DNA of 63,617 nt, counting the filler, from Stramenopiles sp. TOSAG23-6 (Eukaryota), in NCBI GenBank assembly GCA_900128565.1. It is 11 parts of 11 records of this genome, joined end to end, with 100 filler letters (N's around TTAATTAATTAA, not from the genome) between each part and the next. Parts side by side here need not be neighbours in the genome. Positions count along the whole stretch, not along the records: positions 1 to 5,703 come from LT636846.1; positions 5,804 to 11,506 come from LT636847.1; positions 11,607 to 17,309 come from LT636848.1; positions 17,410 to 23,112 come from LT636849.1; positions 23,213 to 28,913 come from LT636850.1; positions 29,014 to 34,712 come from LT636851.1; positions 34,813 to 40,508 come from LT636852.1; positions 40,609 to 46,292 come from LT636853.1; 3 more parts are not named here. The stretch is one strand, 5' to 3'. The notes beneath the pieces were generated by a model, which had not been told where the DNA came from, made no database searches, and saw only the letters and a list, made by a program, of their open reading frames with translations. Of this stretch, positions 1 through 57,043 are shown in pieces; position 1 is the first letter of the stretch, and each line of letters opens with the position of its first letter. Position numbers and translations under genes: made by a program.

Positions 1-45
1 TTTTTTGGTTTTTGGTTTTTTGGTTTTCGTACGAAATTTTGTACC

Positions 46-76
<31 letters not shown>

Positions 77-100
77 TTGAAATATTTTTCCAAAATATAT
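1..100 (+). mobile_element. Introner-family intron, 3' part (AT acceptor)
   Basis: TTTCGTACGAAATTTTGTACC core and ...AAATATTTTTCCAAAATATAT|G end; no AG before the conserved MPGYIH. Confidence 0.8.
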
Positions 101-879
101 GCCTGGATACATTCATCAAAAAGGTAAAATCGGTGTTGTGTCTCGCTCAGGGACGTTAACGTATGAAGCAGTACATCAAACAACAACAACAAATCTTGGC
201 CAATCAACTGTGGTTGGTATTGGAGGGGATCCGTTTAATGGTACTGATTTTATTGACTGCCTTGAACGATTTACGAATGATCCACAAACTGAAGTATGTT
301 TATATATATATGTTATGAAATTTTTTTTAGAAATTTTTTTTTTTAGAAATTTTTTTTTTTAGAAATTTTTTTTTTTTGAAAATTTTGTACCTAACAAAAA
401 TTATTTTTTTTTTAAATATTCTTTACACAACAGGGTATTATAATGATTGGTGAAATTGGTGGCGATGCAGAAGAAAAAGCGGCGGAATGGTTATCTGAAC
501 ATGGTGATCCAAATAAGCCTGTGGTTGGTTTTATCGCAGGTGTTACCGCTCCACCAGGACGTCGCATGGGACATGTATGTTGTTTATTCTACATTTGTGT
601 TTTTTTTTGAAAATTTTTTTTTTTGAAATTTTTTTTTTGAAATTTTTTTTTTGAAAATTTTTTTTGAAATTTTTTTTTTGAAATTTTTTTGTACCTAACT
701 TTTTTTTTTTTTTGAAATATTTTCTGAAAATAAATGCTGGGGCAATCATTGCAGGTGGAAAAGGTGGTGCTCCAGAAAAAATTGCAGCCATGAGAGCTAA
801 TGGTATTCATGTTGTGGACAGTCCTGCTATGCTTGGGGAGAAAATGTTGGAAGTGATGAAAGCAGCAGGAAAAGCTTAA
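99..879 (+). CDS. SUCLG1: Succinyl-CoA ligase alpha subunit, 5'-truncated; exons 101-293, 434-574, 736-879
   Basis: Motifs [37 protein letters not shown] and [13 protein letters not shown] (phospho-His loop); TAA at 877-879 is in frame after splicing. Confidence 0.97.
294..433 (+). mobile_element. Introner-family intron, GT-AG
   Basis: GAA|GTATGT...GTACCTAAC...ACAACAG|GGT restores DPQTE-GIIMIGE. Confidence 0.93.
575..735 (+). mobile_element. Introner-family intron, GT-AT
   Basis: CAT|GTATGT...GTACCTAAC...AAATAAAT|GCT restores RMGH-AGA; the next AG (753-754) is out of frame. Confidence 0.92.
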
Positions 880-1041
880 AAATGTTTCTGAATTTTTAAT
901 AAACATTTTTATTTATTTTATTTTTTTATTTATATGATGATTTCAAAACTGGCAGGAAATTGAAAGGTTTACATGTTTTTTCATTTATGTCAAACTTGGC
1001 AAGAATGACTTCAAAAAAAGTGATTTTTTTTTTTGAAATTT

Positions 1042-4000
1042 TTAATTTGTTTTGAAATTTTTTTTTGGTTTGGTTGCAATAAGTAGTAAATTTTCTATAG
1101 AAATACATTCATTGACATATCGATGAAATTCTACACGAAATCCATGATTTTCTAAATATTGTCCTCGGCTAAAATCAATGAGCAATTTACAATTTCGTCC
1201 AAATTTTCGTCGTGAAGCTCTATCCAGTTCAAGATAATCTGCTGCATTTGTTAACGGGATTTTTTTTTCAGAATTTTTTGCTTCAGAATTTTTTGCTTCT
1301 GAATTTTTTGCTTCACAATTTTTTGCTTCACAATTTTTTGCTTCACAATTTTTTGTTAATGATAATGTAGCCCAACTACTTGCTTTTGCTACTATAGCTA
1401 CATCGTCTTTACTGAAATTATTATCTATAAAAAATTGTTTATTAATACATTGTTTGAAGTCCAAAAGATGATGACAACATGGAGTATGAAAAATATTTCA
1501 AAAAATCTAAAAAAAATTGTTAGGTACAAAATTTACTATAAAAAAAAACAAATTTGAAATTGAAATGAAAACGTACAGGAGCCAAGAACACAATTAATTT
1601 TATCATTTGATGTTTTTGTATGTTTTGTAATTAAATGTAAAGATAAATCAAAAGCTGGACCACATAAGTGTTTACTCATAAAGACAATATTCTTATTATT
1701 ATTAGTAGTAGTAATATCATTATTATTAGTATTATTATCATTATTAGTAGTAGTATTAGTATTATTAGTAGTAGTAGTTATAATATCATTATTATTATTA
1801 TTAGTAGTAGTATTATTAGTAGTAGTAATAATATTATTATTATTATTATTAGTAGTAGTAGTAGTAGTATTATTATTAGTAGTAGTTGTTGTTGTAATAT
1901 CACTATTATTATTATTAGTAATAATATCATTATTATTATTATTATTAGTAATAATATCATTATTATGATTATTATTATCAATATCATTATTACAGTTAAA
2001 CAAAAACTCTATTTCATTATTGAGTTGATTTTCCTGTATATGTTCTATATCATTGACAATCCTTCGAACATGCCCGCCATATATTTTATATTTATTAGAA
2101 TTTAAATACAATTCTTTGTTTAATTCTTTGTTTTTTGTGTTATTTAACATTTTAAATAGATTAATTCGATTTCTATTCATATCATTTTCAACTCTGGACG
2201 TTGACCGAAATTTCATTCTATCCACTAAAAGATAATTTGGTAATGAAATTATATTTTTTATATTTTTTGTATTTTTTGTATTTTTTGTATTTTTTGTATT
2301 TTTTGTATTGGAATCAATTAGACAAGCTGTATGAGAAGCAAGAAGAGGCATTGTACTATACGTATTCGATTCACTACAAAATGTATCTTCAATATGCATT
2401 ATTGCACCATACGTATCATTTTGTATTGCATTTAATATTGATGAGACTTTTATACTATACCTATATTGTTGAACATATTTAAAAAAAAAAAAGTGAAAAA
2501 AATGTTAGGTACGAATTTTCGTACGAAAAAAAAATTTAAAAAAAAAAAAATCATGATGAAAAAATACATTTCAGAATGGAATTCATTTCCATCAATATTT
2601 CTATATCCTCCAAATATAAATAGTTTATCATTAATCAGAGAGCATGTATGCGAAAATCTACCAACGCATGAAAAATTAGTAGTATTAATTTGATGATTCG
2701 TAGTAGTATCAATTTGATGATTCGTAGTAGTATTAATTTGATGATTAGTAGTAGTATCAATTTGATGATTCGTAGTAGTATTAATTTGATGATTATGATT
2801 AGTAGTATTAATTTCATTATCATCATCATCATTGTCTTGAAGTGATGATATTTTGATTCGTTTCCAAACTACAGAAATCGATTTTTTTTTTGTAGGGTTA
2901 GGGTTTTCACAATCATCTAAACACGAAATACAAAGAATCCAAATAAATTCTTGACCCATCACTTCATCTGCATTACGACCACCATACACTATGATATGTT
3001 TACTATTTGAATTTGAATGATTCGATTCTTTAACAGGTATAAATGTTGCTGAATGACGCCATCGAGGAGGTGGATTATTTCCTATACTATTTTGTAAGAA
3101 AATATTTGAAAAAAAAAAAAAAAAAAATTGTTAGTATGATTTTTTTTTTTTTGATTTTTTTTTGATTTTTTTGATTTTTTTTTTGATTTCAAAAAAACAA
3201 AAAATAAAAAAATTAATAAATTCATTCATGTTGAGATGAGATAACGTACACATTTGGTTGAATCCATTCAAAAGCAAATTCTGTATTTTTCATTTTTGTT
3301 ATTTTTGTTGTACATAAAATATGAACATCATTAAAAGCGCCTTGATGCGATGGAGATCGACGTCCCCCAAATATCACAGTATAGTTGACATTTACATCTT
3401 TAAATGAGCCAATGGACGTTGCAGTATGAAAAATACGTGGTAAAGGTTTCAATCCATTGATATTTTTTTTTTTGGACATTGAAATTGAAATTTCATTTTT
3501 ATTTCCTAGATGATTATTTTTGTTGTTATTATTTTTGTTGTTGATGACATTTTTTAAATTCGATTCATTCCATCTTTTGTCATGTCCATCGTTCGTTGAT
3601 ACTGAAAGTACAATGACGTCATTTAATTTTTTATTTCCTGATATGGAACCTTGACCTCCAAAGATAATTACAGAATCTTCACTTATAGAAGTCATTGAAT
3701 GGCCCCAACGTTGAGTATTCTTAGCCGTTTCATTATTTTCATCATTATTTAATATGGACACAGGTAACCATGATGGACAATCAATGGTTTTGTTTTTGTT
3801 TTTGTTACAATTTACATTTGTAATTGATTTCATATCTATGTTTTTTTTGTCAATGTTTACCTTTTTAATAGAACTCGAGTCTAAATGTGTATCATCATTT
3901 GCAATTGAATCCAAATCAATTGAATTCAAATCAAATTTTCGTCGATTATTCTCTAAAGTTGTGATTCCACTAGTTGTATTATGATTACAATGTTTTACTA

Positions 4001-4881: not shown

Positions 4882-5587
4882 ATGACATACTTGTCCTCCT
4901 CTATACTGTATACATCATTTATTACTGTCGTTGTCATCACTGCAGCAGCATCAAATGTTATAATTACGCCTTCTTCTTCTCCACCTGCTGATTCCGAGTT
5001 GGTTAAAGCAGTCAATCAAAAGAATATTGTTACTCTACGGAATTTGGTTACAAGGAAAGGAAATGTAAATTCTGTTGAGGAATATGGACGCTCAATTTTA
5101 CATCTTGCAATTGAAAACAAATGGACAGAGGGAGTCAAACTCTTGCTAGACAATGGAGCAAATATTGAGCAAGTGACAGACCATAGAGCAGGATTTCGTG
5201 CTGGAGAAACGGCACTTCACTATGCCGCAATCGCTGATAACTCTGAAATTATTGAAATGCTTTTGGGAATGGGTGCTAAAATGAATGTTTTCAACGATCA
5301 TGGGATGACAGCCATTCATCTTGCTTCGGGATTGGGCCGAGTCAATGCAATCAAAACAATGCTAGGTACAAATCGAGACGTCAAAGTTGACGTATCAAGC
5401 AAAAATGTATTTTTTTTTTAAATGAATTTTAATTTTTTTTTTTTTATACGAAAATTTGTACCTAACAAAAAAAAATTTTTTTTTTTAATATTTCTTCACA
5501 AAATAGAAGTATGAAAGTACACCGATTCATCTTGCTGCTGCATCACTCAATGAAGCAATCCCCGTGTTACAATTATTGCTTACTCAT
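4882..5587 (+). CDS. Ankyrin-repeat protein with N-terminal hydrophobic segment, 3'-truncated
   Basis: GRSILHLA, GETALHYAA, GMTAIHLA and STPIHLAA repeats; intron at 5407-5506; a second intron from 5588 runs into the contig end. Confidence 0.9.
5407..5506 (+). mobile_element. Introner-family intron, GT-AG
   Basis: AAT|GTATTT...GTACCTAAC...CACAAAATAG|AAG TAT keeps frame. Confidence 0.88.
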
Positions 5588-5703
5588 GTACGTTTCCGAT
5601 TGTATGATTTTGATGTTTTTTTATGACTTTTTTTTATGGTTTTATCAATTTTTTTTTCGTACGAAATTTTGTACCTAACAAATTTTTTTAGATTTTTTTT
5701 GAA

Positions 5704-8810: not shown

Positions 8811-9041
8811 AATGTTGGGGTCAAAATTTTATAGTCAAAAAATATTTATAGGTANAAAATTAAAAAATTAAATTTTATTAGATTATGAAGAAATATTTAA
8901 CATTATAAAAAGTATGTAAGAAATTATTAATCAAAAAAAAATCAATCGTAAACATCGAAGAAATTCAATGTTGTTTACATTTTGAAAATTCGATTTCTTT
9001 TTTTTTTTTTCGTAGTAATTTCCGTACCTAAAAAAAACAAG

Positions 9042-10252
9042 TTACATTTTGAAAACATTTCCTTCATCGTAACCTACGTCTTTTAGTACACCACTCAATT
9101 TCCCTTGTTTCTTATCTTTTGTCTTGTCTCCACTGATTGCTTTCATCATTGGAGGTGGACCACAAACAAACATCATTAACCCTGGAGTATCTGGTTCAGG
9201 CATGAGTTGTAAAGAAATATTTCAAAAATTTGATTTTTTTTGTGAGATTTAAAAATTATGAAAAAAAAAAAATTCGAAAACAAGAAAAAAAAAGGTAAAT
9301 GATGAAAATATACATATTTCGTCGAACCATATCTTTGTCAATAAAACCATATACAGAGTACAATATGTCAAAGCTANTAAAAAAAATTAGATAAAAACAA
9401 TTTGAAATTCATGATATAAACGTAGTCAATACTCAAAAAAACAAAAGTTTTTGTTTTTTTTTGTTTAGGTACAAAATTTCGTACCAAAAAATAAATAAAT
9501 TTGAAATTCATGATATAAAATACTGTTTCACCAGTCCAATTTCCAGAAGAAGACGCAACGGTATAAACAACCTTAAATCGATCCGGAAATAACTCAGCAA
9601 GTGAATCCAATCGGTCACGCAACAAAATATCATCGACAGTATTATTTCCATATAGAAGGGTAATTTTTGTTCTGTCTTCTGGGTTGTACAAAATTTCGTG
9701 AACTATTTGCAGCATTGGCGTAAGACCGGTTCCACCAGCAACCATACCAATATTTGAGAACTTATTTGCGACATATGGAAATTTACTCCAAGGCCCTTTC
9801 ATCTGAATAGACTGGCCGACATACAGTGAATTGAGATGACGGCCCATTCCACCTGGCTTTCCGTCTTTTCTAGGTGGGTATGCTTTCACAACAAAGTCAA
9901 CGTAACCTTGTTGTGACCGCGTTGAGATTGGAGTATATGGTCTTGATACCATCTGGCCATCAATTTCAGCTTGAATAGAGAGACAACTTGCTACGTCCAT
10001 TCCCAACGTATGCTTCTCTGATGGCAATTTGAAGCGTATTACACTCGTATCTGGGGAAACTTTCTTCGTAGCACTGACACGAAAAGTTTTCCACTCACTT
10101 TTAGATAGTGACGTCAACTCACCTTCATCACACGCAGCAGTTGCAAAAGACGAAGCACTAAACCAACCTATCGAGCCGACGCCCACAGCTCCAACTGATC
10201 CCCACGCAGCACGGGACATAGTGCCATTAATTTTTCTTGCAAATCGGAACAT
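9042..10252 (-). CDS. CYB5R: NADH-cytochrome b5 reductase; exons 10252-9524, 9348-9314, 9201-9042
   Basis: RPYTP, KGP, MVAGGTGLTPMLQ, WTGET|GFIDKDM, VCGPPPMM and terminal VFKM*. Confidence 0.95.
9202..9313 (-). mobile_element. Introner-family intron, GT-AT (degenerate core)
   Basis: AAT AT|GTATAT...CAACTCAT|G CCT GAA keeps frame into VCGPPPM. Confidence 0.82.
9349..9523 (-). mobile_element. Introner-family intron, GT-AT, with internal partial duplication
   Basis: ACA|GTATTT...CTGTATAT|GGT TTT ATT restores WTGET-GFID. Confidence 0.88.
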
Positions 10253-10541: not shown

Positions 10542-11423
10542 ATGAGTGAGTTTGATTTCAAGCAGTTAATAGGAATATGGAAAGCGCAATTCGATATGCC
10601 CATCCAGTATGAATTTCTCTCAGAGAGTAGACTTCGACTCATTATTCAAAGTCTTGAACCCACCACACTTGACTTCAGTCTTGACACCAGTGGTGATCTT
10701 TGGAAACTTGATATTCAACACGCTGGTGGCCCTTTGGGTACTGGTGTAGAATGTTGTATATTTAAGTTTGAATCTGGTGGCGATGAGCTCCATATCGCGT
10801 CACCATTACCCCAGGGAACAAACTCCTTTGGTCCCCGTCCAACAGAATTCGGTGGTGTGACAACTGTGGTTTTTACCCGTCCTGGTAGTGAATCCAAAAT
10901 TCGCGAACGTGCAATGCTTGAGGTTGCACATCACTCTGAAACTGAGAGATTGATTGGTTATTTCACTGAAGCCCTGAAATTATTGGGCGATGCTCAGAAA
11001 CGCATGGAAGCTGTAATGGGAAATGACACTGGACATAATAATCCTATGGAGTTGATGTATTTTTTATTTTTTTTCAAATTCGATTTTTTTTTTTTTTGAA
11101 AATTTTGTACCTAACAAGTTTAAGTTTTTTTTTGAAATATTTTCCAAAATACATTATGATGGAACAAATGCAAATGGCTACAAAGATGCGCAAGATTGAA
11201 ATGAAATACCATTCAGTAATGACTAAAGTTGAAAGTAAATTTAAGAGTGCTAATCCATATGACTGGGAAGATTCCACAGTACGACAGAAATCGAAACAAT
11301 TCCTGGAAAAAGTTCGCGAAATGGAAGAGTTCAGTCAACAGCAAGCCATGACTCTTATGCTCAGACAAAATCAAGCTGCTTCAAAAGGAGGAGGTGCACA
11401 ATCTAATACAATTATTCCTCCAA
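10542..11423 (+). CDS. Hypothetical protein, 3'-truncated; intron 11057-11154
   Basis: Two open frames are joined in phase by a family intron; a second family intron runs into the contig end. Confidence 0.7.
11057..11154 (+). mobile_element. Introner-family intron, probably GT-AT
   Basis: TTG AT|GTATTT...CCAAAATACAT|T ATG. Two AGs within about 10 nt of the branch point are also in frame, so the acceptor is not uniquely fixed. Confidence 0.7.
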
Positions 11424-11683
11424 GTATGTATGTTTTATTTTTTTTTTTACAAAAAAATCGATTTTTTTTTCGTACGGAATTTTGTACCTAACAATTTTTT
11501 TTAGATNNNNNNNNNNNNNNNNNNNNNNNNNNNNNNNNNNNNNNNNNNNNTTAATTAATTAANNNNNNNNNNNNNNNNNNNNNNNNNNNNNNNNNNNNNN
11601 NNNNNNAAAAAAAAACTAAAATTTGTTAGGTACAAAATTTCGTATGAAAAATAAATTCGAAATTGAAAAAAGATAAAAGATAC

Positions 11684-14730: not shown

Positions 14731-15966
14731 TTACCAAATCGTTGACATTGTATTGTGTATTTCTGTATCTTCAACTGTTTGTTCGGACATATATCGCGTT
14801 GATGTGTTTTTCTTTTTTCTTACTTGTGCATTATTTTTGTGATTTATTTCGATAGCTTTTTGATAGTTCAACTCCCAATCAGTAATTAGCATAGAATATG
14901 CAAATGTATTCAAATTATTATTTGATGGCTTTAATGTTTTACTTTTCAAAGGAGAAACGTTTGACAAATTCGAAATTAAATGCGAATTTGTTTTCATAGA
15001 AACGTCTATTATACTACTACTACTTCTAGTTAACTCAATTGTTTGAGTATCATCTTTAGAATCTGTACTAATTTTACATTTTTTTGCCTTCATTCTCTCA
15101 CTATTACTATATTTACTATCTTCATTAGCATTCTCTATCATTTCTGTTTTTACTATAGAGTTGCTTCCTGGAGTGAAGGATTTACTAGGAAGAGGGTTAG
15201 GGTTAGGGCCACTTTTATATCCCGTCTGTCTTGCCAACAGAGCTATTCTTTTTGCAACGGTTGTATTATAATCCCGATATACTGCCCTAGCATGTCTCTT
15301 ATGTCTAATATCATCACACATCAATGTCTGCATTTCGTGTTGGTAATTTATTTCATCATGTATGTATTGTGAAAAAATATTGTAGAAAAATATTGTTAGG
15401 TACGGAATTTCGTACCAAAAAAAAAACAAATTCATCATGAAAACGTACAAAAAATGGTGGCTAACGGTATAAAATATATTCGTCGGGCGGAGAACTTTCG
15501 AGTATCTATACTGGAATTCACTTATATCTACAATTAAGTCAAAGTCGATAGCAAAAAGGAGTTGTACTTCTAAGGTATTCATTTGCTTGAGAGTTAAACC
15601 CCCAATTCTTGCAAAATCTTTGTTTGTAAAATGAACGTCGTCATTGAACTTTGCTGCAACAAGGACACTAGCAAGAATTGCAGTGTGAACATTTTCAGCT
15701 ATGATTCGATGATTGCAACTACGTTCTAAACGACTCACATAACAACTTGCGAGAATATATGATTCAAAACTACAACACGCATAAGTACAAATTCGAGAAA
15801 TGTATTTTTCCATGTTATAACCAACTATCGGCTTAACGTCTTTTTTTGTTTGGGCGTGGACAACATTATGTTTTCTTTGTGCGGCCATTTTCATCTGATG
15901 CATTCGAAGAGATATGCCACTCTCTATAGAACTCTGATATTCGTTATTAGTTATTCCCATTGGCAT
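14731..15966 (-). CDS. PHO80/cyclin-U(P)-like cyclin; in-frame intron 15362-15448
   Basis: YISRI..Y..CS, AAKFNDDVHFTNKDFARIGGL and MNTLEVQLLFAIDFDL. Confidence 0.88.
   Translation of the reverse strand: MPMGITNNEYQSSIESGISLRMHQMKMAAQRKHNVVHAQTKKDVKPIVGYNMEKYISRICTYACCSFESYILASCYVSRLERSCNHRIIAENVHTAILASVLVAAKFNDDVHFTNKDFARIGGLTLKQMNTLEVQLLFAIDFDLIVDISEFQYRYSKVLRPTNIFYTVSHHFLYVFMMNLFFFWYEIPYLTIFFYNIFSQYIHDEINYQHEMQTLMCDDIRHKRHARAVYRDYNTTVAKRIALLARQTGYKSGPNPNPLPSKSFTPGSNSIVKTEMIENANEDSKYSNSERMKAKKCKISTDSKDDTQTIELTRSSSSIIDVSMKTNSHLISNLSNVSPLKSKTLKPSNNNLNTFAYSMLITDWELNYQKAIEINHKNNAQVRKKKNTSTRYMSEQTVEDTEIHNTMSTIW
15362..15448 (-). mobile_element. Introner-family intron, GT-AT, 87 nt, stop-free
   Basis: TT|GTACGT...GTACCTAAC...CACAATACAT|A; phases match. 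Confidence 0.85.
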
Positions 15967-17220: not shown

Positions 17221-17410
17221 GTATGTTTTATTTTTTTTTCAATTTAGAATTTCTTTTCGTACGAAATTTTGTACCTAACGTTTTTTTTTTCAAATATTTT
17301 TCCAAAATANNNNNNNNNNNNNNNNNNNNNNNNNNNNNNNNNNNNNNNNNNNNTTAATTAATTAANNNNNNNNNNNNNNNNNNNNNNNNNNNNNNNNNNN
17401 NNNNNNNNNT

Positions 17411-18510
17411 GGATACCCGTTCCGTAGGAGCTTTACAGCAGATACAATCTTTTCGCCGGAAAGGCATTCCAGTCATCATTACTAATGGTTTTCAGGACTC
17501 TTTCTCGTCTTGGATAAAACAAGATGGTAGCCTCAATTTGGACTATCTATCCAAACTATTAGGGAATGAACACGTTCCTGTGAAAGTTTATCGTCAGACA
17601 AAGTATTGTGATGATTCTAGGAGTGAAAGTGCACGTTGTAGTGGCGCAAAAAAAGAAAGTATTGTACGTATGACATTTCAAGAATTTCTCAGTGGCTTTT
17701 GGATTCCAGGGAAGGAAAGTGGCTATCTACACCAATGGCAGTTTCCTTTATCAGAGACTGCAAACAAAAATATTCGGCATTTTGTTCCTAAAACTCAATT
17801 TTGTTCATGGGCGGAACCGGAACCTTCACTAATTTACATTGTGATAAGGGTGGCTTATCTATAATAATTGCTCCTATAGTTGGCACCAAAGAAGTTATTG
17901 CAGTTCATCGTAGTGATGGGAAGATCATGGGCTCTAGTCAGTCTTATAGTACATTTTCAAAATTATTTTTTTCACCTAAATGTTTTTTGTACCAAAGTTT
18001 GTACCTAATGAATATTTTTTTGAAATTTTTTTTTCACAAGTGTATGTGTACCTAGTAATCCATTAAAAACCAACTTGGTAACTCATCCACTTTTCGGTTT
18101 TGCTCGTTCCTGGAAATGCACAGTTATCCCTGGCGACATTTTGTTGATGCCTGCTGGGACTTATCATTCTGTGAAGAACAAAACGCCATGTTTCTCATAT
18201 CACCGTATGCACATTTTCATTATGAATTTCAAATTTATTTTTTTTTCATACGAAATTTTGTACCTAACAATTTTTTTTCGATTGTGTTTTTTTTTTTTCA
18301 CAATACATGCATCTGGATTCACTAAATTTGCCATGGCTATTTGATTCATACCGTCGATCTGAAGTCTGCGAAATTGATCATCCGTTGATCATATGGAATT
18401 TGACTCATGGAGTTATGAATCAAACTGATAATTGGTGTGAAAAAAATAGAAAAATAGATTTGAAACATAGAAATGACTTTCAGCAACAGCAACAAAAAAG
18501 TTTTTTTTGA
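17411..18510 (+). CDS. JmjC-domain protein, 5'-truncated, apparent frameshift near 17800; introns about 17949-18045 and 18209-18308
   Basis: GIPVIIT, YLHQW, FMGGTGTFTNLHCD (HxD) and PGDILLMPAGTYHSVKN. Confidence 0.8.
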
Positions 18511-23024: not shown

Positions 23025-23212
23025 ATGTATTTTAGAAAAATATTTCACACAACAAAAAAAATCGTTAGGTACAAAATTTCGTACGAAAAAAAAATCGAAT
23101 TTGAAAAAAAAANNNNNNNNNNNNNNNNNNNNNNNNNNNNNNNNNNNNNNNNNNNNTTAATTAATTAANNNNNNNNNNNNNNNNNNNNNNNNNNNNNNNN
23201 NNNNNNNNNNNN

Positions 23213-24640: not shown

Positions 24641-24675
<35 letters not shown>

Positions 24676-24789
24676 AAGATACATTGATGTAATTTCCATT
24701 CGTGAGATAACAGTAGCTAAGAGATGATCAAACTCAAAATAAAAATATTTTTGAAAAAGTCTACCACTGGATGGAGACACATATGCCAC
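23213..24789 (-). CDS. Polycystin-2/TRP-like cation channel fragment; exons 24789-24683, 24584-24247, 23975-23658, 23477-23462, 23337-23213
   Basis: The spliced product has successive transmembrane helices and pore-helix SSFVYGSTSLFRIILG (compare PKD2 FRIILG); all four junctions are in phase (three AT, one AG). Confidence 0.7.
24585..24682 (-). mobile_element. Introner-family intron, GT-AT
   Basis: TCA AT|GTATCT...CAATAAAT|G GAT; an in-frame TAA just upstream of the AT rules out earlier acceptors. Confidence 0.75.
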
Positions 24790-24929
24790 ATGTCTTTTGG
24801 AAAAATATTTCACAAAAAAAATTTTGAAAATTCGTTAGGTACAAAATTTCGTACGAAAACCAAAAAAAAACCAAAAAAAAAAAAATCGATTTTTTTTTAA
24901 GGCCAAAAAAAAAAAAAAAAAAAACATAC

Positions 24930-28913: not shown

Positions 28914-29066
28914 NNNNNNNNNNNNNNNNNNNNNNNNNNNNNNNNNNNNNNNNNNNNTTAATTAATTAANNNNNNNNNNNNNNNNNNNNNNNNNNNNNNN
29001 NNNNNNNNNNNNNTACAAAATTTCGTACGAAAAAAAAATTCGAATTTGAAAAAAAATAAAACGTAC

Positions 29067-34669: not shown

Positions 34670-34865
34670 ATGTATTGTGAAAAAATATTTTTTTTTTTTA
34701 AATTTTTTTTTTNNNNNNNNNNNNNNNNNNNNNNNNNNNNNNNNNNNNNNNNNNNNTTAATTAATTAANNNNNNNNNNNNNNNNNNNNNNNNNNNNNNNN
34801 NNNNNNNNNNNNTACGAAATTTTGTACCTAACGATTTTTTTTTGAAATATTTTTCCAAAATACAT

Positions 34866-35454
34866 CGCCGGTTTCTCTTCACAAAACTTTCATATATTCT
34901 AATGGAATTTCGTCAATGACACAAATTTCTACACGATATGGCGTATCTTCAAAACATTTGCTTGTCGCCACTCATGATGGTAAGATTGCAATGATAAATA
35001 GGGATATTTTAAATCCAAGAAGACCTGAAAAAAAACCAACCAAAAATGAGGAAAAAGAGCGACTGATGCAATATCATCCTATGTTACCATTCAATTATCA
35101 GGAAGTGATAAGCCATCGCTTATTCTTGCCTCGTGTTTCGGGTGTAATTGCTACGGAAACATTTTTGGAATCGACTTCACTTGTAGCCGGGATGTACATT
35201 TTCATTATTTTTTTTTCATACGAAATTTTCATACGAAATTTTGTACCTAATAACAAAATTCTTGTAATATTTTTTCACAATACATAGGACTTGATATTTT
35301 TTGTACTAGAATGCAGCCTTCTGGTGCATTTGACCAATTGCCAAAATCTTTTAACAAGCCGATGCTAGCTCTTCTTGTTTTTGGTTTGTCTTTTGGCACA
35401 ATATGGGCAAATCAAGCTCTCAGTAAGAAAAAACTGTTTGACGCGTGGAAGTAA
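34866..35454 (+). CDS. EMC1: ER membrane complex subunit 1, C-terminal part; intron 35194-35285
   Basis: T.YGVSSKHLL, LNPRRP, LESTSLVAGI|GLDIF, PSGAFDQL...FNK and terminal WK*. Confidence 0.93.
35194..35285 (+). mobile_element. Introner-family intron, GT-AT
   Basis: GGG AT|GTACAT...CACAATACAT|A GGA; the AG 2 nt downstream is out of frame. Confidence 0.9.
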
Positions 35455-38657: not shown

Positions 38658-40508
38658 ATGGCGAAAAAGAAGGGAGGGAAGGGAAAGGGAAAGGGAAAGA
38701 AGAAGAAGAAGAAGAAGAATAGTTCTGATAAAAATGATGTTGATTCAAAAGAAAAAGGCGATGGTGAAGAATGGAAAACCAAGGGGTTTGTACGTTTTGT
38801 TCCCGAGGAAGAAGACAAACCGAAACCAAAACCTTCTAAACCAATCAGTGAAATGAAGACACACGAACGCATACTCCATCGAAAGACTTATCTTCCTTTG
38901 CCTCGGTTCTCAATTAAATCTAGAGAAACCGCCGCAGTGACAATCAGATGGACTGAGGTTTCTCAGCATAATACTGACAAGATGGGTCAGATAAAGAGTT
39001 TAAAACGTTTAAGAAATTTAGGACTCAGTGAACGATCTGACTTGCAAGACCAACATTATGATGATGCGGCAACAGAGGTAAGAAAGAAAAGTAAGCAAAT
39101 GCACATAGGGATATCCTCTGCTTTGAGCAATGGTTCAAATAATAGGAAAATTCCCCATAGAGAAGATGGATTATTTTTATCTCCTCGGGACTCATATGTA
39201 CTTTTTAATTATGAATTTTTTTTTTTTTTTTTTGGTAGAAAATTTTGTACCTAACGATTTTTTTTTTTTGAATATTTTTTAACAATATATCTTCATAAAT
39301 GTCGTTTAGCACGGGTCGCACCCCGACCTTCGATATTTACAAAAACGTCACCAATTGCGCATAGATCGGTTCTTATGGATAAAAGTTTAAAGTACCAAAA
39401 TGCATTGCTTGGAGTGGATCAAATATCTGCACTATGTGGTGCAATTGAGGAAGTACAAGATATGCAAGTGAGAACTTTATCCTTAGCAAACAACCGCATG
39501 TACGTTTTTATTATTTTTCAAATCCGAATTTGTTTTCGTACGACATTTTGTACCTAACGATTTTTTTTGAAATATTTTTCCAAAATACATCGATCACGTT
39601 GGCTGTCGTCTTCTAAGTACTTCTCTATATCAGCATCATGCATTAATGAATATAGATCTATCTGGGAATCCAATAGGCACGAAAGGCATGGGTTATCTTG
39701 TTCATGTTTTAGAAAGTAATCATCTACATCAGATCAATTTTGCATCATGTATGTTTTCATTGTGAATTTTAAATCTATACTTTTTGTACCAAATTCCCAT
39801 ACCTAACGATTTTCAATGTAACATTTTTCTACAATACATGCTCACTCACTGACGATGCTATTGTAACGCTTTGTCAGGTACTTTTTCGAACTCACTCGGT
39901 GAGACAATTAAATTTGAGTGGTAATACATTCGGGGTACACGCCTGTTCCGCTGTTGCAAAACTAGTTGCCGCATCGACCATTTCGAGTCAATTGAGGTTA
40001 ATGGAATTAAAAATATCCGATAATAAAATTCCTCCGGTGGGTCTTTGTAAGATATTTTTAGCTCTTTCATTAAATGAAACACTACAAGTGTTGGATATTA
40101 GTTTAAATTCTCTCAGTGGTCGTGAATCACGTCACTATAAACATTTACTTCCTGTACTTGATTTGGATGCATACAAGAAGTTTCCAGTGGAAAGAGGATT
40201 TGGTCCAGTTTGGGATAAAATATCATCAGAAGATTCTGAAGTGTCTGAAGGAAAGAAATTAAAGAAAAACGATGGAAAGGATAAAGATAAAAAGAGTTCA
40301 ACAGCAGGAAAAGGGGGGAAAGGCAAAAATGGTGATGATAGTATCAAAGCTTTACGAGCAAAAAATCTAGAAAATAAGCGAATTCATGGACCATGTATGT
40401 TTAATTTTTTTTTTAATTTCAATTTTTTTTCGTACGAAATTTTGTACCTAACATTTTTTTTTTTTGGAATATTTCTCCAAAATACATAGGCGTGGAGGAT
40501 ACAATTTC
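38658..40508 (+). CDS. Leucine-rich-repeat (RI-like) protein, 3'-truncated; family introns 39198-39290, 39500-39590, 39749-39839 (GT-AT) and about 40395-40489
   Basis: Splicing restores LSLANNRI|DHVG and INFASC|SLTD; further LRRs DLSGNPIGTKG and LNLSGNTFG. Confidence 0.85.
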
Positions 40509-42757: not shown

Positions 42758-45083
42758 TTATTCATTCCTACCATTTTTACAAACTGCTACAGGTCCATCA
42801 CCAACATCTACAAGTTCAAAAGTTGGAAATTTCATCATTGTATCATTATGAATATTCCGATGTGCATTCTTATCTTCTTTAATATTTAAGTGGAACCGGG
42901 TATCATTTGCACATTCCTCACCTGAANTAANTTTTTTTTTTTTTTTGTTTAATTGAAAGGTCGTTCAAAGAATTCTCTACTTTTAATTTAAACCCATTTA
43001 TAATATTTTCTATAACTTTAGTACGATAATGTAAAATTACGACTAATGACATCATTGATACAGCAAGTAAAATTTTCCACGTCATTGAAAGTTTATATAA
43101 AAAAACGTCCAAGTTTTCTCCGTGCATATGTTTTATATACAGAATTTTCATACTAAAAAAATGTGGTAAAAAAATCAATTTTTGAAATCAATAATAAAAC
43201 GCAAAGAAAAATCATCAGGCACAATTTGCTTTTGAAAAAACTAAAAAAAATGATGAAAACGTACTGAACCATAGTCGACACCATTAATGATGAAAACAAC
43301 AATTAGTCTAAAGGATGTCGTTACAATGAAGATAAAATCCCATATTGTAAATGACGAAGACGCTGCGGTCAAAATCTGTGCGATTTCAAATATAACAAGA
43401 ATGTAAAATGAATTCAATATGTACTATAAGAGGATAAGAGGATAGAGCAATTGTGTGTAACTAACAAATTTAACATTTGTTTGGTACAAAATTTGGTACA
43501 ACTTACATTTCGTTTTGACATTTGAAAATAGATCAGAGTTGAGTAAAAACACGCAATAGTTTCGAATCCATCGAGAGAAAATGTAGTGTGAAAAAATACC
43601 TAATTTGAAATTTTGTTAAAAAAGAATTGTAGTGTGAAAAAATACCTAATTTGAAATTTTGTTAAAAAAAAAAATAGAAAAAATTGAAATTAGTTTGAAA
43701 TCATCAAAAAGTACATGATTCTCGGCTGAAGGCTTCGTCCCATAAATGATTATATAGTATATATTGGTATAAAAATGTGGATGTGACAGATTTGTCCTTT
43801 GAAATTATTTTGCGGTGCATGAACTGTGACAAAAATAGTTTTTTTAATTCGTTAGGTATGAAATTTTCCAAGTAAAACAAATAAATGTAAAATTTTCACA
43901 ATAAAAAGATTAAAACTTACATACCAGAACCTAATTGTTTCCAAGAACAATTAATAAATTGATGATTCCAAAGTCTTCCAGGTGCTTCACTCGCGGCATC
44001 ATCCATTGTACAGAAATTGATTTTGATGTTACAAAATTTATTTTCGGCAAGAAATGTGAAAAAATATTTTTTTTTGGACAAAAAGTTTTTTATGTACAAA
44101 ATTTTCATTATTAAAAAAAAAAATAGATGAAATATTCCATTTCGAAAACATACAATCACAGCAAAAATGGAAAAATAAAATGTTATTCCAAATACTTTTA
44201 AAACTGACTTTGTAATACTTTCAGAAATATCAAGAAGATCGATAATTTCCATTAGGTTATGGTTAGGATTAGGGTTAGGGTTAGTTCTTCCTGTTTTTCC
44301 AGGGAATTTAACTTTTCCATCGATTGATTTGTTTGTATATTTAACATTTTCTGCGCCTTTTGTAGAGTTTGTATATGCCCGAGAGTGAGCATATATGTAT
44401 TGTGAAAACATATTTTAAATTCGAAATTGTTCAAAAGGTTAACAATTTTGTATGAAAACAAAAATAAAATTTGAAATTCATGATATTTTGGAAAAATATT
44501 TTTTTTAGTGAAAAAATCATTAGGTACAAAATTTCGTACGAAAAAAAAATCGAAATTGAAAAAAGACGACGTACAGACACTGTGACTGTGTATGTAACAT
44601 AAAGTAATTAAGAAAGTATATACCAAACATAATGAGAATATGTAATACCCATAGAACTTCATCTTTTTGAGTAAATCCGTAATAATGTCCAGATTTAATA
44701 TCAACTTTTCCGGATTTTTCATACGCAGACTTATATTTTGTGTGCAATATAATTCGGTATGTCGCTAAAGGAATAAAAATAGTAAATATAGAAATTACCA
44801 GTGACATCACTTTTATCTTGTGAACTTCTAACCGAGTTTTAACAGTAACATAATCTTGATTATTTGACCAAAGGGTTGCAAAGAAAATAGATGCTGTACA
44901 GAGAATATGCAGAGTCATACCAGCTGCAATGGCTTTTTGATATCCCAAAATAAAAAAGACAATGTTGCATAACACGAGGAGAAAACTCTGTAGCAAAATG
45001 ACGCGTTGAGTAAAATTTATCAAAAGTGTTTGTCGTAAGACTATTCTATCGGATGATCCTTTGTTAAATACGACGTGTTTCAT
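42758..45083 (-). CDS. Multi-exon membrane protein of unknown function; exon structure only partly resolved
   Basis: Hydrophobic open frames separated by family introns (44395-44574 is in phase); the other junctions are uncertain. Confidence 0.5.
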
Positions 45084-46211: not shown

Positions 46212-46396
46212 GTACGTTTTCATTATGAATTTCAAATTTGTTTTTTTCGTACGAAATTTTGTACCTAACAAATTTCGAATTTAATTTTTTTTNNNNNNNN
46301 NNNNNNNNNNNNNNNNNNNNNNNNNNNNNNNNNNNNTTAATTAATTAANNNNNNNNNNNNNNNNNNNNNNNNNNNNNNNNNNNNNNNNNNNNTGTT

Positions 46397-51312: not shown

Positions 51313-52070
51313 TTATGAATGTGAAACTGGGGGTGGAGGCCCCTTCATTTCTGATTCATCGACTGGTTTAATACCATGAAAACGATCATAATTAATATGA
51401 CATGCACCTTTAATTCTTTGAACACAACTGACAAAATCATGATCCCAAAAAACTTCACATTGACCTTTTTTATCGAATTTATCTTCAACGTATTGTGAAA
51501 AATTATTTAAAATTTTTTTTTGAAAATTCGTTAGGTACAAAATTTCGTATNNNNNNNNNNNNNNNNNNNNNNNNNNNNNNNNNNNNNNNNNNNNNNNNNN
51601 NNNNNNNNNNNNNNNNNNNNNNNNNNNNNNNNNNNNNNNNNNNNNNNNNNNNNNNNNNNNNNNNNNNNNNNNNNNNNNNNNNNNNNNNNNNNNNNNNNNN
51701 NNNNNNNNNNNNNNNNNNNNNNNNNNNNNNNNNNNNNNNNNNNNNNNNNNNNNAAAAAGGTCAATGTGAAGTTTTTTGGGATCATGATTTTCATCTTTTT
51801 TTTTAGAATGTACATTTAAATGTACATTTAAATGATTTATTGAAGAATGTTTCACTTGTTGATATTCGACACCACCTTGTTCACCTTCTTTTTCAATATG
51901 TCTTTGTAAACATTCTTTAGAAGGAAAAGGTTCTCCATTTGTAGTACTAATGGTTTGAACATCATGTACTGTGAAATATATTGTGTTTTTTTGTTAGGTA
52001 CAAAATTTTTCAAAAAAAATAATTCGATTTTTTTGTAAAAAAAAAAATAAAACATACATGCCCACTAATT
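51313..52070 (-). CDS. Hypothetical protein, 3' fragment; family intron 51964-52057 and a second one ending CAATACGT| near 51489
   Basis: Open frames flank the family introns; interrupted by an N gap. Confidence 0.45.
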
Positions 52071-52222
52071 NNNNNNNNNNNNNNNNNNNNNNNNNNNNNN
52101 NNNNNNNNNNNNNNTTAATTAATTAANNNNNNNNNNNNNNNNNNNNNNNNNNNNNNNNNNNNNNNNNNNNGTACAAAATTTCGTACGAAAAAAAATCGAA
52201 TTTGAAAAAAAATAAAACATAC

Positions 52223-53060: not shown

Positions 53061-54043
53061 TAATAGTATACGTCTTTAATGTATTCGCTAATATGGAAAA
53101 GATTCTTATAATGCAAGGATCTCAAATCTCTCTCAAATATCCCAAGATCGAAAGAGGCGTAATTTATAACGGATAATCTAAATCATTTTATTTCTATTAT
53201 TTATTTTTTTTTGCGGCCAATATAAGCAGCTTTGTGTCGAGTTTGAAAAAAAAAAACTCCAGCGGAGCTATATATAATGCCTTCTAATTCAATGAATACA
53301 GAGACGTTTTACATGCGACATCGACGAGGTTGCAAAGAGGCTGCCATTCTACTATGCCACTAAAGCATTGAAGAAACGTCGCAATAATGTAGAGGTTACA
53401 CGCACTTGAAGGCAAACCCTGGTTACCCGGTAATGCATGACCGCGCCGTTTCTGGTCAAAAAAATCTTTTTTTTGTACCGTACTATCTGAAATTTGTAAA
53501 AAAAAATTAAAGATTTAATGGTCAAAAAAATCTTTTTTTTGTACCGTATGGTATCTGACAAGATATCAAACAATTAAACAGTTGAGAAGATTGGACATCA
53601 ATCTTTCGCTATTGATCCACATAATAAAAAGTATACCCCACACAGACCGCTATTCCAACATGTTGTTTTTAGACGCAGAACATTGGCACACTAGTCGATA
53701 TACTCATGCAGCTTTCGTGGGCGTGTGTATCATTTGTTTTTGTAATTTGGTCGGTCCCATTGACGCTATCATTTCTCTCCCATTTTATATAAAGTATGTT
53801 GTTAACCATGAAAGACGTAAAAAAGAGTTGTTGGAAGGAGAAGTTGCAGGGAGAAACCCCGAATAACCAAACCCTGTTGAGAAAAACAGAATTTGCGTCC
53901 AATAACCTATTTTCAAGTACGAAATTTGTAAAAAAAAATTAAAGATTTAAGAAATTTATAAACCAGATTTCCAACAAATAAGAATGTTTCCCCAATACAC
54001 TTCAACGCAATATCTCAATTTATATAACGCAAATTAAACTTTC

Positions 54044-55390
54044 TTAGCCTTTGTGATAAATCTCAGGTTCCGAAGGACAAGCTACTGTGTATCTGCAATC
54101 ATTCCAGACCCACATGTTAGATGCCCACTTTTCACCTTTCAAGACAGGACACCCGGAATGCAGAGAACGCTCATCTAATTTCCCATTTGGTAATTGGTTA
54201 TAGAAAAGAAGAGCTGACCCTTTTTTAGGTCTCACGGAAAGAACCCCGCTATAGCATAATTCGGCAAGCGAATTTTCCCACCCTTCTTGACCTTTGTTGG
54301 CTAAATCGACTTCAGGTTTTTGTTTCATTTCGTTGTAAGATTCTCTTGCCTTTGCTGACATTCCAATTTTATCTTTCACCTCTTGTGACATTTTTGAAGT
54401 ATCCGCTTTTGGAAACATAGTTTGCCCCCCCGCACCTTCTTCGACATCACTTAGGTATAGAAAAACTGTAGCAAAACGATTCGACCCACCTGTTTGAGGG
54501 TCAAAGTTATGCGTTCCTGATGCAACAGGTGTTCCAATTGCAAAGAAATCGGTATGAACATTATATCCTTGAGTATGCTGGTAACGGAGAATCTGTAAGC
54601 CATCAGCAAGAGGTTCCTTATATGGAATCCTCAAGAGTTCGAAAGATCGTCTCTTTACTCTTCTCGCAGTCTCTGACTGAATATCAAATGCATTGTTACT
54701 GGTGCGATCAGTTGCAAAATTTTTTCTTGTCCCTTCCTTCCAATGTTCTGGACCGACAGTTGACTTTTGAAGTTTATGAGGATTTGAAGGATCTGTTGCA
54801 CGTTTAATTAGAACTTTCATTTCTTGATCAGACAAAAAGTTTTCAACAAAAAAAGTACGGGGAAATTCAGTCAGAACTTGTAATTTAATTGGTTCATTGG
54901 TAGGTGTATCAATATTAGGAACCTCAAATATATCTCCCATTTTTTTTTGGGGCCAAAAGAAATGTTCATTGCGGCCTTTAGGCGTGGTATAGAGGATGTC
55001 CTCATCTGCAAAGTCATCACAAGACGTGATCCAGAGACCAGTAGCGGTAAAATATTTTTCTGGCCAAGTACGCGTATCACATCTTAATTTTGTTAGAGAA
55101 AAGGGTTTCGCATGTGCTTCAGTTTGAGCTCCATTTGGCAGGAGTCTTACCATCTTAAACTTAGAAAAATTTGACGTTATTGAAAACAATTTCTCACGGG
55201 ACTCCTTTAACGAACGGACGAACTCAGGAATCGGATTTACGATAGGAGTAACGCAGCTACAAGCTAATCCTATAAAAAATAAGCATGTTACATATAATGG
55301 GTTTAACTGGTGTTCCTTTGACTTACCTTTATTCTTAATCTTATTTTTAATTGCGTTGTCTTCATTCTGATCTTTCATCATTAGGGTCAT
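54044..55390 (-). CDS. Prolyl 4-hydroxylase alpha-like 2OG-Fe(II) oxygenase
   Basis: NFLSDQE, RTS, LQILRY...Y..HTD, NRFATVFLYLSDV and SLHSGCPVLKGEKW. Confidence 0.93.
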   Translation of the reverse strand: MTLMMKDQNEDNAIKNKIKNKGKSKEHQLNPLYVTCLFFIGLACSCVTPIVNPIPEFVRSLKESREKLFSITSNFSKFKMVRLLPNGAQTEAHAKPFSLTKLRCDTRTWPEKYFTATGLWITSCDDFADEDILYTTPKGRNEHFFWPQKKMGDIFEVPNIDTPTNEPIKLQVLTEFPRTFFVENFLSDQEMKVLIKRATDPSNPHKLQKSTVGPEHWKEGTRKNFATDRTSNNAFDIQSETARRVKRRSFELLRIPYKEPLADGLQILRYQHTQGYNVHTDFFAIGTPVASGTHNFDPQTGGSNRFATVFLYLSDVEEGAGGQTMFPKADTSKMSQEVKDKIGMSAKARESYNEMKQKPEVDLANKGQEGWENSLAELCYSGVLSVRPKKGSALLFYNQLPNGKLDERSLHSGCPVLKGEKWASNMWVWNDCRYTVACPSEPEIYHKG

Positions 55391-55698
55391 CTACGCGCCT
55401 GGCGATTTACCGGTCCTTTCGTATATGACTCTCCGATCTCTGAAAAAAATCGAATTTCAAAATTTTCTTGCGGTTTTTGGTTGGTTGGTTCCGTGCGCGT
55501 GAACAAAATATCTTCGCTCCTCTCTTGTTTATAAAAATAATACTCTACTACTACGTCTATATAATACGAATCCTAGCTAGTACGTACATAGTAGCTTAGG
55601 TATAGGATATTAAATCTCAACCGAGAAATCTACCCATCAAGGTTTTGATCTCGTATTTTCTTTTCCATTAATCTGTATCATATAAATTATTATATATT

Positions 55699-57043
55699 AT
55701 GAGTGCAGCTCCTCCATTACCACCGGGTCTTACACAAACTATTGAACTACAAACTTCTGTGGAATCATCTGCAAGTAATTCTAAAGTTGCGTCTCTTGAA
55801 ATTCTCGTGAAGCAACTAAAGTCAGAGAATGCTAGCTTGAAACTGAAATTAAAAGCTTCACAACGAGAGATAAGTAGACTGTCTAAAACATTGTCAAGAA
55901 AAACACCCCTAAAGAAATCTTCTTCAAAAATAAAGACTCCCGTGAATGGGAAAAATTCAACCCCCGTTGGACAGAGGCTTCCTGGTTCAAAATCCAAAAA
56001 GCTCAGCCATATAAAGTCTCGTTTGTTGCAGCCAACTGCATCAACAAAAACACGAGCAATGAAAGATGCAGAGAAAAAAAAACGTGAAGACGCTGAGGCA
56101 TTGACATATGTACGTTTTCATATTTAATTTTAAATTTATTTTTTTGTACTACATCTAAAATTTTCGTGTACCTAACAAATCTCATACTGTAAAACATATT
56201 GTTTCCAACGCATGACTTCCAGCCTAAAATTTTCACAAAGAAAAAAGGTCAAAGTGTAACCAAACGTAACCCAGAGACTTTTAAACGACTCTTTGAGCAA
56301 GCCGCGATTCGAGATGAACGTCAGAAGCTAGCTCAGGCGGAAAATGAAGCAAAAAAATTGGATGGCTGTACTTTTGCGCCTACTACTTCGAGTGTGACTA
56401 AAACAAATTCTGCTGTTTTCTCTCGTTTGTATGAAAACAAAACTAAGTCCGTGCCTTTAAGTATCTCCAAAGATTTGTCTGAGTGTACATTTCAACCAAA
56501 TTTGAATAAAACTAATTCAAAACCTAACCGAGAGAATCCAGAGAAAGTTTCTTCACGTTTATATGAGGATGCAAGCGAAAAACGAAAAAGATTGACGGAA
56601 ATGAAGGCTGCAGATGATGCTAAAAAGGAGGAAGTTTTACGAGAATTGCATGTATGTTTTATTTTTTTTTTAACAAAAAAATCGATTTTTTTTCGTACGA
56701 AATTGTGTACCTAACAAATTTAGTTTTTTTTTTGAAATATTTTTCCAAAATACATACTTCCTCAGTCCATTATGGAAAAAAAATAGATACTCTAAAGCTA
56801 AGCAACAGACTTCACGAAGATGCTGCGAAAAAAACTGAGGAAAGAGAAAAAGTTACAATATCAAATATACCAAAACCTCTCAAAAATAGAACAAAAGAGG
56901 ATGTTGATGAGGTTGTGAAGAGACTCCACAATACACCCTTAATTGGGAAGCAATTACAAGAAGAAGCTGAATGGATCGGAAACACAAATGAGAAAGACAT
57001 TACAAATAGAGCTGATTCTCCTGAATTTGAGGCATTTGAGTAA
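55699..57043 (+). CDS. Coiled-coil protein with CTFxP / RLYE repeats; family introns 56110-56213 and 56652-56755
   Basis: Three exons join in phase; repeats GCTFAP, ECTFQP and SRLYE. The first intron also has an in-frame AG 9 nt downstream. Confidence 0.78.

Follow-up and report, generated by a model that had tools for sequence, protein, structure and literature searches.

We analysed a 63,617-nt stretch of DNA (the window) from Stramenopiles sp. TOSAG23-6, assembly GCA_900128565.1, in which 11 contigs of about 5.7 kb each are joined by runs of N plus a 12-nt linker. The window contains a real family of introners: introns of unrelated genes are alike along their whole length. These elements very probably give rise to introns that begin with GU and end in AU. 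The family lies on the coding strand of its host genes and has constant ends, its removal restores reading frames, and at five GT..AT junctions the joined exons are exactly colinear with homologous proteins. From the strand bias, the splice signals, the reading frames and the homology we infer that excision takes place in RNA, by the spliceosome, at exactly the GU and AU bonds, and we consider an introner family yielding spliceosomal GU..AU introns in a MAST-3-like stramenopile to be the likely account of the data. The organism, an uncultured flagellate, is judged to be a marine stramenopile of this kind from the source name of a protein identical to the SUCLG1 exons of the window (GSMAST32.ASY1.ANO1.720.1, eukprot) and from the next best SUCLG1 matches, which are stramenopiles (oomycetes, Blastocystis, diatoms and Triparma). 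An earlier sequence-only reading of this DNA had described such a family; its observation is confirmed as a whole, and its interpretation (one family, sense orientation, exact removal, an AT end) is supported as far as sequence can show.

The 25-nt core quoted in that reading was found 24 times in the window at up to three mismatches, compared with none in 100 shuffles. The reading had also proposed counting copies with a hidden Markov model (HMM) of the element. We built the model from 16 clean copies and searched the window with nhmmer (E ≤ 0.01), which returned 48 matches, none past position 56755. Of these, 42 lie inside 41 curated sense-strand introns, four, among them a copy antisense to CYB5R, fall outside curated introns, and two are opposite-strand echoes of an internal palindrome. 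Curation, in which borders were set by coordinates and one copy (B28) was added later by homology, also gave 48 copies, so that the original figure of about 50 copies of one dispersed family on unrelated contigs holds. The curated copies are located on 10 of the 11 contigs, whose GC content ranges from 22 to 44% across the window, and in at least 15 different genes; 36 are complete, seven consist of the 5' part only and five of the 3' part only. All 12 partial copies adjoin contig ends or N gaps, which indicates that the assembly breaks in the introner repeat. The element has a median length of 104 nt (range 87-277, 35 complete copies). Every curated copy (48/48) is sense to the coding sequence, in agreement with the claim that the family is in sense orientation wherever it is intronic, and the single clear antisense copy lies after a stop codon, outside coding sequence, which fits selection against antisense copies in genes.

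Base counts at the borders were made on 42 5' ends and 40 3' ends, before B28 was added. The donor has G at +1 in 42/42 copies, T at +2 in 41/42 (the other being GC), A at +3 in 41/42, C or T at +4, G at +5 in 31/42 and T at +6 in 42/42, followed by more T's; with B28 included, the donor dinucleotide is GT in 42/43 and GC in 1/43. The branch-like core, TACCTAAC, includes a CTAAC motif, has a 12-nt palindrome ahead of it in many copies, and lies at a median distance of 38 nt from the 3' end. At that end A occupies -4 in 33/40 copies, position -3 is C in 30/40 and T in 7/40 (a pyrimidine in 37/40), A is found at -2 in 38/40, -1 is T in 33/40 and G in 7/40, and the first exon base is G in 23/40. 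The dominance of AT at the 3' end, first put at 28 AT, 7 AG and 1 GT of 36 introns, was borne out with B28 included, with 32 AT, 7 AG and 2 GT of 41. The 3' signal, YAT/G, is the usual YAG/G with its last base changed to T. Judged as U2-type GT-AG introns, the copies have the donor and the CTAAC motif but not the acceptor, AG being present in only 7/41.

AG is depleted between the core and the 3' end, with 11 occurrences observed and 20.1 expected by shuffling in 26 non-AG introns, and it is absent from this interval in all seven AG-ending introns. In diverged copies the terminal AT stays while -3 and -4 drift, as expected from selection on the terminal AT, a pattern that is partly circular where alignment and frame alone set the border.

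The copies are given below, first those on the plus strand (A), then those on the minus strand (B).

A1, 1..100 (+): 3' part at contig start, ends AT, SUCLG1; the exon opens with the G of a Met codon aligned to a homologue Met.
A2, 294..433 (+): complete, GT..AG, SUCLG1; 24/25 listed homologues abut exactly.
A3, 575..735 (+): complete, GT..AT, SUCLG1, between His and Ala of GHAGAII; 24/25 homologues abut exactly.
A4, 5407..5506 (+): GT..AG, ankyrin-repeat gene; fits the ankyrin reading frame.
A5, 5588..5703 (+): 5' part, contig end.
A6, 11057..11154 (+): GT..AT; in frame, open reading frame (ORF) of 214 codons upstream and 112 downstream.
A7, 11428..11506 (+): 5' part, contig end.
A8, 17221..17309 (+): nearly whole, cut by contig end; CLP1 gene.
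A9, 17949..18045 (+): GT..AT, JmjC/cupin gene; frame kept, with 99 codons downstream, but lost if an AG 5 nt upstream is used.
A10, 18209..18308 (+): GC..AT, JmjC/cupin gene; no canonical alternative.
A11, 19538..19635 (+): GT..AT, upstream exon ends TT; 202 and 426 codons; no canonical alternative.
A12, 20844..20958 (+): GT..AT, ends AAAT.
A13, 34813..34865 (+): 3' part at contig start, ends AT; EMC1.
A14, 35194..35285 (+): GT..AT, EMC1 C-terminal domain; colinear with the EMC1_C profile.
A15, 39198..39290 (+): GT..AT, LRR gene; no canonical alternative.
A16, 39500..39590 (+): GT..AT, LRR gene.
A17, 39749..39839 (+): GT..AT, LRR gene.
A18, 40395..40487 (+): GT..AT; the junction makes a TAG 21 nt before the contig end.
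A19, 46212..46292 (+): 5' part, contig end.
A20, 56110..56213 (+): GT..AT, ends GCAT.
A21, 56652..56755 (+): GT..AT.
Antisense copy, 8994..9056 (+): antisense to CYB5R, right after its stop codon.
B1, 1479..1576 (-): GT..AT, ends CCAT, TRM13-like domain of the TYW3/Kelch gene; no canonical alternative.
B2, 2461..2567 (-): GT..AG.
B3, 3087..3249 (-): diverged, GT..AG.
B4, 9202..9313 (-): diverged, GT..AT, ends TCAT, CYB5R; gap-free against 6 homologues.
B28, 9349..9523 (-): composite with an N, GT..AT, CYB5R, upstream exon ends CA; ET/GF colinear with 6 homologues.
B5, 11607..11683 (-): 5' part, contig end, WD40 gene.
B6, 15362..15448 (-): GT..AT, cyclin gene, upstream exon ends TT.
B7, 23025..23112 (-): 3' part, ends AT.
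B8, 23338..23461 (-): GT..AG; in frame when joined via the 16-nt exon 23477-23462.
B9, 23478..23657 (-): GT..AT.
B27, 23970..24246 (-): long diverged intron, GT..AG.
B10, 24585..24682 (-): GT..AT, ends AAAT.
B11, 24790..24929 (-): GT..AT, fucokinase; tblastn of 3/15 homologues ends at 24930; His-to-Phe spacing as in homologues.
B12, 25545..25712 (-): GT..AG, fucokinase; 4/15 homologues abut exactly, 3 more within 1-2 residues.
B13, 26417..26530 (-): GT..AT, fucokinase; colinear with 5 homologues.
B14, 26857..27016 (-): GT..AT; an N nearby in the flank.
B15, 27274..27463 (-): GT..AT by alignment; flanking frames one base apart.
B16, 29014..29066 (-): 5' part, contig end.
B17, 29902..29996 (-): GT..AT, ends CCAT, EGF-repeat gene; fits the EGF reading frame.
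B18, 30149..30247 (-): GT..GT; upstream exon ends CGT, intron ends CGT; EGF-repeat gene.
B19, 32556..32653 (-): GT..AT, Cys-loop receptor ligand-binding domain.
B26, 34670..34712 (-): last bases of a copy at contig end, ends AT; EFTUD2.
B20, 43819..43924 (-): element ends AT; frame fits an AG at 43824.
B22, 44395..44574 (-): two tandem copies, GT..AT.
B23, 51488..51550 (-): 3' part, ends GT.
B24, 51964..52057 (-): GT..AT; upstream flank cut by N.
B25, 52171..52222 (-): 5' part, contig end.

Removal from the GT to the element end restored the reading frame in 31 of the 36 complete copies, against one third by chance (27 automatic joins of long ORFs, B4 and B28 by homology, and B8 and B9 via a 16-nt exon). 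Seven junctions are exact by homology, five of them GT..AT (A3, A14, B13, B4 and B28) and two GT..AG (A2 and B12). Since the two GT..AG junctions, too, are exact when read from this same GTATGT donor, the register of the donor is fixed. That exact removal restores conserved proteins, as had been proposed, was seen in SUCLG1, EMC1, fucokinase and CYB5R, whose junctions are gap-free. In SUCLG1, three exons abut residue-to-residue across A2 and A3 in 24 of the 25 best homologues listed. The 25th protein is the public coding-sequence (CDS) model P0002 (575-756, +), the only public CDS model recovered, which reads eight codons into A3, takes a canonical AG 21 nt downstream and replaces AGAIIAG by eight unrelated residues, losing the conserved GHAGAII loop. 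In EMC1 the exon upstream of A14 reaches position 157 of the EMC1_C profile two residues before its end, the split codon corresponds to position 160 and the downstream exon continues from 161. The fucokinase sequence GGLV/CNVA at B13 is colinear with GGAVTNVA in five homologues. CYB5R freed of B28 and B4, with the 35-nt exon between them, aligns gap-free to six homologues; the split Met codon at B4 aligns with Met or Leu, and the GT..AT reading of B28 yields a Thr found in four of the six. Elsewhere, B1 is colinear with the TRM13 profile within one residue, the B18 junction (GT..GT) preserves the CSGxGYC spacing of the neighbouring EGF repeat, and B19 is only roughly colinear with its Pfam model, with a gap of about six positions.

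Two tiny exons lie between element copies, one of 16 nt (23462-23477, -) and one of 35 nt in CYB5R (9314-9348, -), the latter confirmed by homology; searches of PDB with the two short CYB5R exons gave no match. Another fucokinase intron, at about 26166-26338 (-), has a GTATGT donor and no in-frame AG or AT acceptor; its frame can be satisfied by GT..TA, by AT..AT or, at the cost of three additional residues, by a weak GTGTAG donor paired with AG. Protein searches with the SUCLG1 exons, among longer proteins, returned no same-species transcript-derived protein, only P0002 and relatives at up to 94% identity. We compared intron positions in three SUCLG1 relatives (P0241, P0003 and P0118). The ORF of P0241, a close relative, has GHAGAII uninterrupted at the A3 site but is broken at another place, with unrelated residues at its start, 27 codons upstream, and several 159-residue ORFs of relatives start at the Met that follows A1 here. 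Intron positions thus seem to differ between close relatives. The element is present in none of 80 loci related to P0003, which are mostly bacterial and other sucD genes at no more than 79% identity. The exact 20-nt core has no match in metagenome contigs of the Joint Genome Institute (JGI) and a single one in prokaryote genomes, in a Bacteroidales metagenome-assembled genome, covering the core only, as chance predicts. Rfam gave no match on the window, and no autonomous copy was seen in it.

Several observations weigh against spliceosomal GU..AU splicing at the element ends. Some 108 ATs are found in the intervals that separate the core from the terminal AT, so that the dinucleotide by itself cannot specify the 3' site; branch distance, an A-rich or YAT context, or pairing with the 5' end must contribute. 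Seven curated copies (A3, B14, B9, B26, B3, B4 and B27) have no nhmmer match and were assigned by core motif, 3' motif or general resemblance only. Among the complete copies, B15 is off by one base, B20 is in frame with an AG lying 5 nt before the element end, and the frame is not assessable at A18 (a stop at the junction) or at B14 and B24 (N in the flank). Small sequence errors exist: the JmjC gene shifts frame at about 17790 (+), near an A run and without intron signals, and both this shift and the one-base offset at B15 may be small assembly errors. Duplication of the borders, in what is a weak test, barely exceeds the shuffled expectation, with 2-nt matches in 21/35 copies versus 18.6 (P 0.06) and 3-nt matches in 11/35 versus 7.6 (P 0.044). 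Where the upstream exon ends in AT, a GT..AT and an AT..AC intron yield the same mRNA, and spliced RNA cannot separate them. Finally, once cryptic sites and the loss of codons are admitted, some in-frame canonical alternative can be named for 16 of 24 non-AG introns.

These alternatives came from a search for GT/GC..AG introns that are in-frame and stop-free, allowing donors up to 15 nt and AG acceptors up to 45 nt away, and the 24 introns include B24, whose phase is not established. They bear on the proposal that the elements are removed inexactly, through cryptic GT..AG sites, or are retained, many genes being damaged or altered. The public model P0002 does use a cryptic AG, as B20 may do, and B6, at 87 nt, is open in frame. 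Inexact removal nevertheless appears unlikely to us. Eight of the 24 introns have no in-frame stop-free canonical alternative at all, and in the introns checked by homology the canonical alternatives would delete or add conserved residues: that of SUCLG1 drops AGAIIAG of GHAGAII, while exact removal is gap-free in 24/25 homologues, and exact removal is likewise favoured in EMC1, fucokinase and CYB5R. Moreover, the SUCLG1 exons are 93.7% identical to those of the relative P0009, which is not expected of dead genes.

The ambiguity of the mRNA concerns a different proposal, in which these elements are spliced with both cuts shifted two bases upstream, as AT..AC introns, and look like GT..AT introns through an AT repeat at both borders. 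A and C as first and last intron bases are compatible in the major spliceosome, and AT..AC is a rare U2-compatible pair. The upstream exon ends in AT, often CAT, in 29/42 copies, and positions -4 and -3 are AC in 22/33 non-AG copies. We regard this register as improbable, and reject it as a general one, since the remaining copies would have odd borders: starts of TT, CT, GT, TG, TA or CA in 13/42 and ends of AA, CC, TC, GC, GT or AT in 11/33. Two homology-checked introns misfit, A3 becoming AT..AA and B4 AT..TC; at B28, where the exon ends in CA, the GT..AT reading supplies the Thr of four of the six homologues; and the AG-ending members of the family are exact only from the GTATGT register. 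The donor would furthermore read ATGTAT, with A at +5 in place of the conserved G. U12-type introns have an RTATCCTT donor and the branch site TCCTTAAC 10-26 nt from the 3' end. They were rejected here as well, the donor being GTAYGT and not RTATCCTT and the core lying at a median of 38 nt from the 3' end.

The ends of the element form a short imperfect inverted repeat, ATGTAY...RTACAT, and pairing between them would speak for a third possibility, non-spliceosomal removal, either by structure-guided excision of the euglenid, diplonemid or Amoebophrya type or at the DNA level. End pairing is reported for other non-canonical introns in the available text of two studies (PMC12621601, PMC7789003). 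In minimum-energy folds the ends pair, with at least four terminal pairs, in 11/35 copies, and the mean end duplex is -2.8 kcal/mol compared with -1.35 kcal/mol for shuffled ends. But this pairing is weak and absent from 24/35 folds. Structure-dependent introns have extended end pairing and no conserved donor, whereas here the donor is invariant, and no copy lacks a textbook donor or a CTAAC branch motif, the latter set at a fixed distance (median 38 nt). The complete sense bias is expected of RNA signals and not of DNA excision, and spliceosome genes (EFTUD2 and SART-1) are found in the window. Non-spliceosomal removal is thus, in our estimation, very unlikely. Sequences eliminated in the manner of ciliates were rejected separately, there being no TA borders and the strand bias being against them.

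We find it hardly credible that errors of amplification, sequencing or assembly created the AT ends. The contigs are short and break inside copies, and at least one frame change is unexplained, yet an artefact would require one identical wrong base at 32 separate loci while seven read AG and two GT, and the exons on either side are undamaged and align colinearly with homologues.

We return to GU..AU introns removed by the spliceosome, and to where their terminal AT might come from. Six complete copies have a rare 3' trinucleotide, and in three of them the same trinucleotide (TAT, AAT or CGT) closes the exon just upstream. Together with the AT that ends most upstream exons, this fits a target-site duplication of 2-3 nt, the downstream copy of which would end the intron. 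Plain insertion preference or splicing preference for AT/G would look much alike. A pure 4-nt duplication of CATG was rejected, the first exon base being G in only 23/40 copies.

As we picture it, a short non-autonomous mobile element would have inserted many times, on the sense strand, into protein-coding genes. Each copy would bring a strong U2-type donor (GTAYGT and T's), the branch-like core and a YAT end about 38 nt beyond it, and the exonic AT or CAT before the copy would reflect either the duplication or the preferences just described. The major spliceosome would then most likely excise the segment that opens with the first G of GTAYGT and closes with the T of YAT, giving back the original mRNA exactly. 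Going one step further, we lean slightly towards a single introner burst that, in this MAST-3 lineage, replaced most introns with a near-uniform GU..AU class in which the other U2 signals were kept (GUAYGU, CUAAC, a pyrimidine at -3, A at -2 and G at +1), the spliceosome or its 3'-site readers (U2AF1, second-step factors) having shifted or relaxed from YAG to YAU.

The genes of the window were named by Pfam and homology: SUCLG1, the TYW3/Kelch/TRM13-like gene, the ankyrin gene, EGF-repeat genes, CYB5R, the WD40 gene, a CPSF5-like NUDIX gene, a cyclin, CLP1, the JmjC/cupin gene, fucokinase, a Cys-loop receptor, the C-terminus of EFTUD2, EMC1, SART-1, the LRR gene, RMD1-3 and an aminotransferase. 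The host genes named in the sequence-only reading, SUCLG1, CYB5R, EFTUD2 (its C-terminus), EMC1 and the GHMP-kinase/fucokinase, are among them. The last contig (57947-63617) has a higher GC content of about 0.40, no element copy and a single uninterrupted Gly/Ser-rich ORF of 1694 codons with no Pfam match; it may come from another organism. Telomere-like (CCCTAA)2-4 tracts were matched 12 times, compared with 0.05 expected in the window, at 2893-2905, 15192-15204, 24448-24460, 25361-25385, 25988-26000, 27940-27952, 28403-28415, 44264-44282 and 51255-51267. Most are sense-strand tracts within coding exons, where they would encode Asn-Pro repeats; they are either real interstitial insertions or an amplification artefact.

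The AG end of introns is among the most constant signals of eukaryotic genes. A 57-kb sample of a free-living protist in which about three quarters of the introns appear to end in AU, with an ordinary donor and branch, would constitute a natural experiment on the choice of the 3' splice site, in a cleaner system than Fritillaria or Amoebophrya, whose borders are heterogeneous where those described here are near-uniform. If the burst and the shift to YAU did take place, the organism would be the first eukaryote with a single non-AG acceptor as its default, and for a group of grazers that is abundant in the ocean the current gene models would be systematically wrong. Standard gene-finding software cannot model AT-ending introns, and canonical-only gene models of this assembly are likely to be wrong wherever a copy sits, as for SUCLG1, which would affect functional and biogeographic studies using these genes. 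The claim can be tested directly with existing seawater polyA metatranscriptomes. Among public sequencing runs, two small DNA runs share 0.70 of the sampled words of contig 1, two seawater DNA metagenomes 0.20 and 0.11, and four seawater metatranscriptomes, polyA or other, from three studies 0.05-0.09; these shares carry no evidential weight.

Introners are already known, as are non-canonical introns that stem from transposons, described en masse in Fritillaria, Amoebophrya and the euglenozoans; a GT..AT-dominated family is apparently new. In the literature we found no description of a GT..AT-dominated genome or of MAST-3 introners, and the supplements of the introner surveys, which lay outside this search, could hold relevant entries; with that proviso the novelty first claimed for a GT-AT-dominated genome stands. 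The available text of a MAST-3 single-cell genome paper mentions est2genome and SNAP, and nothing in it concerns splice sites (PMC5778133). Introners are described in Micromonas and Aureococcus (PMC11282704), and families in Chrysochromulina, Symbiodinium and Florenciella (PMC9860276). As far as the available texts go, introner surveys start from annotated introns (PMC9860276, PMC12130899) and the 2025 survey takes only AG and AC as 3' ends (PMC12130899), so that a GT..AT family would be neither annotated nor retained. The introners of marine protists resemble the present family in being short, near-identical, non-autonomous elements that insert in sense, make introns and leave the mRNA unchanged. 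The Chrysochromulina element, as described, carries its donor and takes its acceptor from the target-site duplication (PMC9860276), which is the layout proposed here. Unlike those elements, which are described with AG acceptors, the present one has AT in 32/41.

AT-AC introns, U12-type and rare U2-type, likewise have a non-GT-AG pair accepted by a spliceosome, and some two thirds of the copies could formally be read in their register; they differ in that it fails in many copies and that the U12-type RTATCCTT donor and branch distance of 10-26 nt are replaced here by GTAYGT and a median of 38 nt. Fritillaria borealis, according to the available text of two papers, has transposon-derived introns with inverted repeats and duplications, and AU acceptors exist there, removal being ascribed to a modified U2 spliceosome (PMC11282704, PMC13326754). 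An exonic trinucleotide TAC before the intron is said to have formed its 3' splice site (PMC11282704), and is comparable to the CAT found here. In contrast to that animal, as so described, the stramenopile protist studied here has a textbook donor and branch and a single dominant GT..AT class. Amoebophrya is another marine protist with mass non-canonical introns, some of them introners: more than 60% are described as non-GT-AG, and some are repeated elements that have inverted repeats and, across their borders, direct repeats of 3-5 nt (PMC7789003). No dominant pair is reported in the available text and the hairpin repeats measure 8-20 nt, whereas here the pair is uniform and end pairing weak. 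The introns of euglenids and of hemistasiid diplonemids are also non-canonical en masse and regarded as derived from insertions like those of miniature inverted-repeat transposable elements (PMC12621601); as described there, they have no U1-compatible donor and pair strongly at their ends, unlike the present introns, in which the donor is canonical and the pairing weak.

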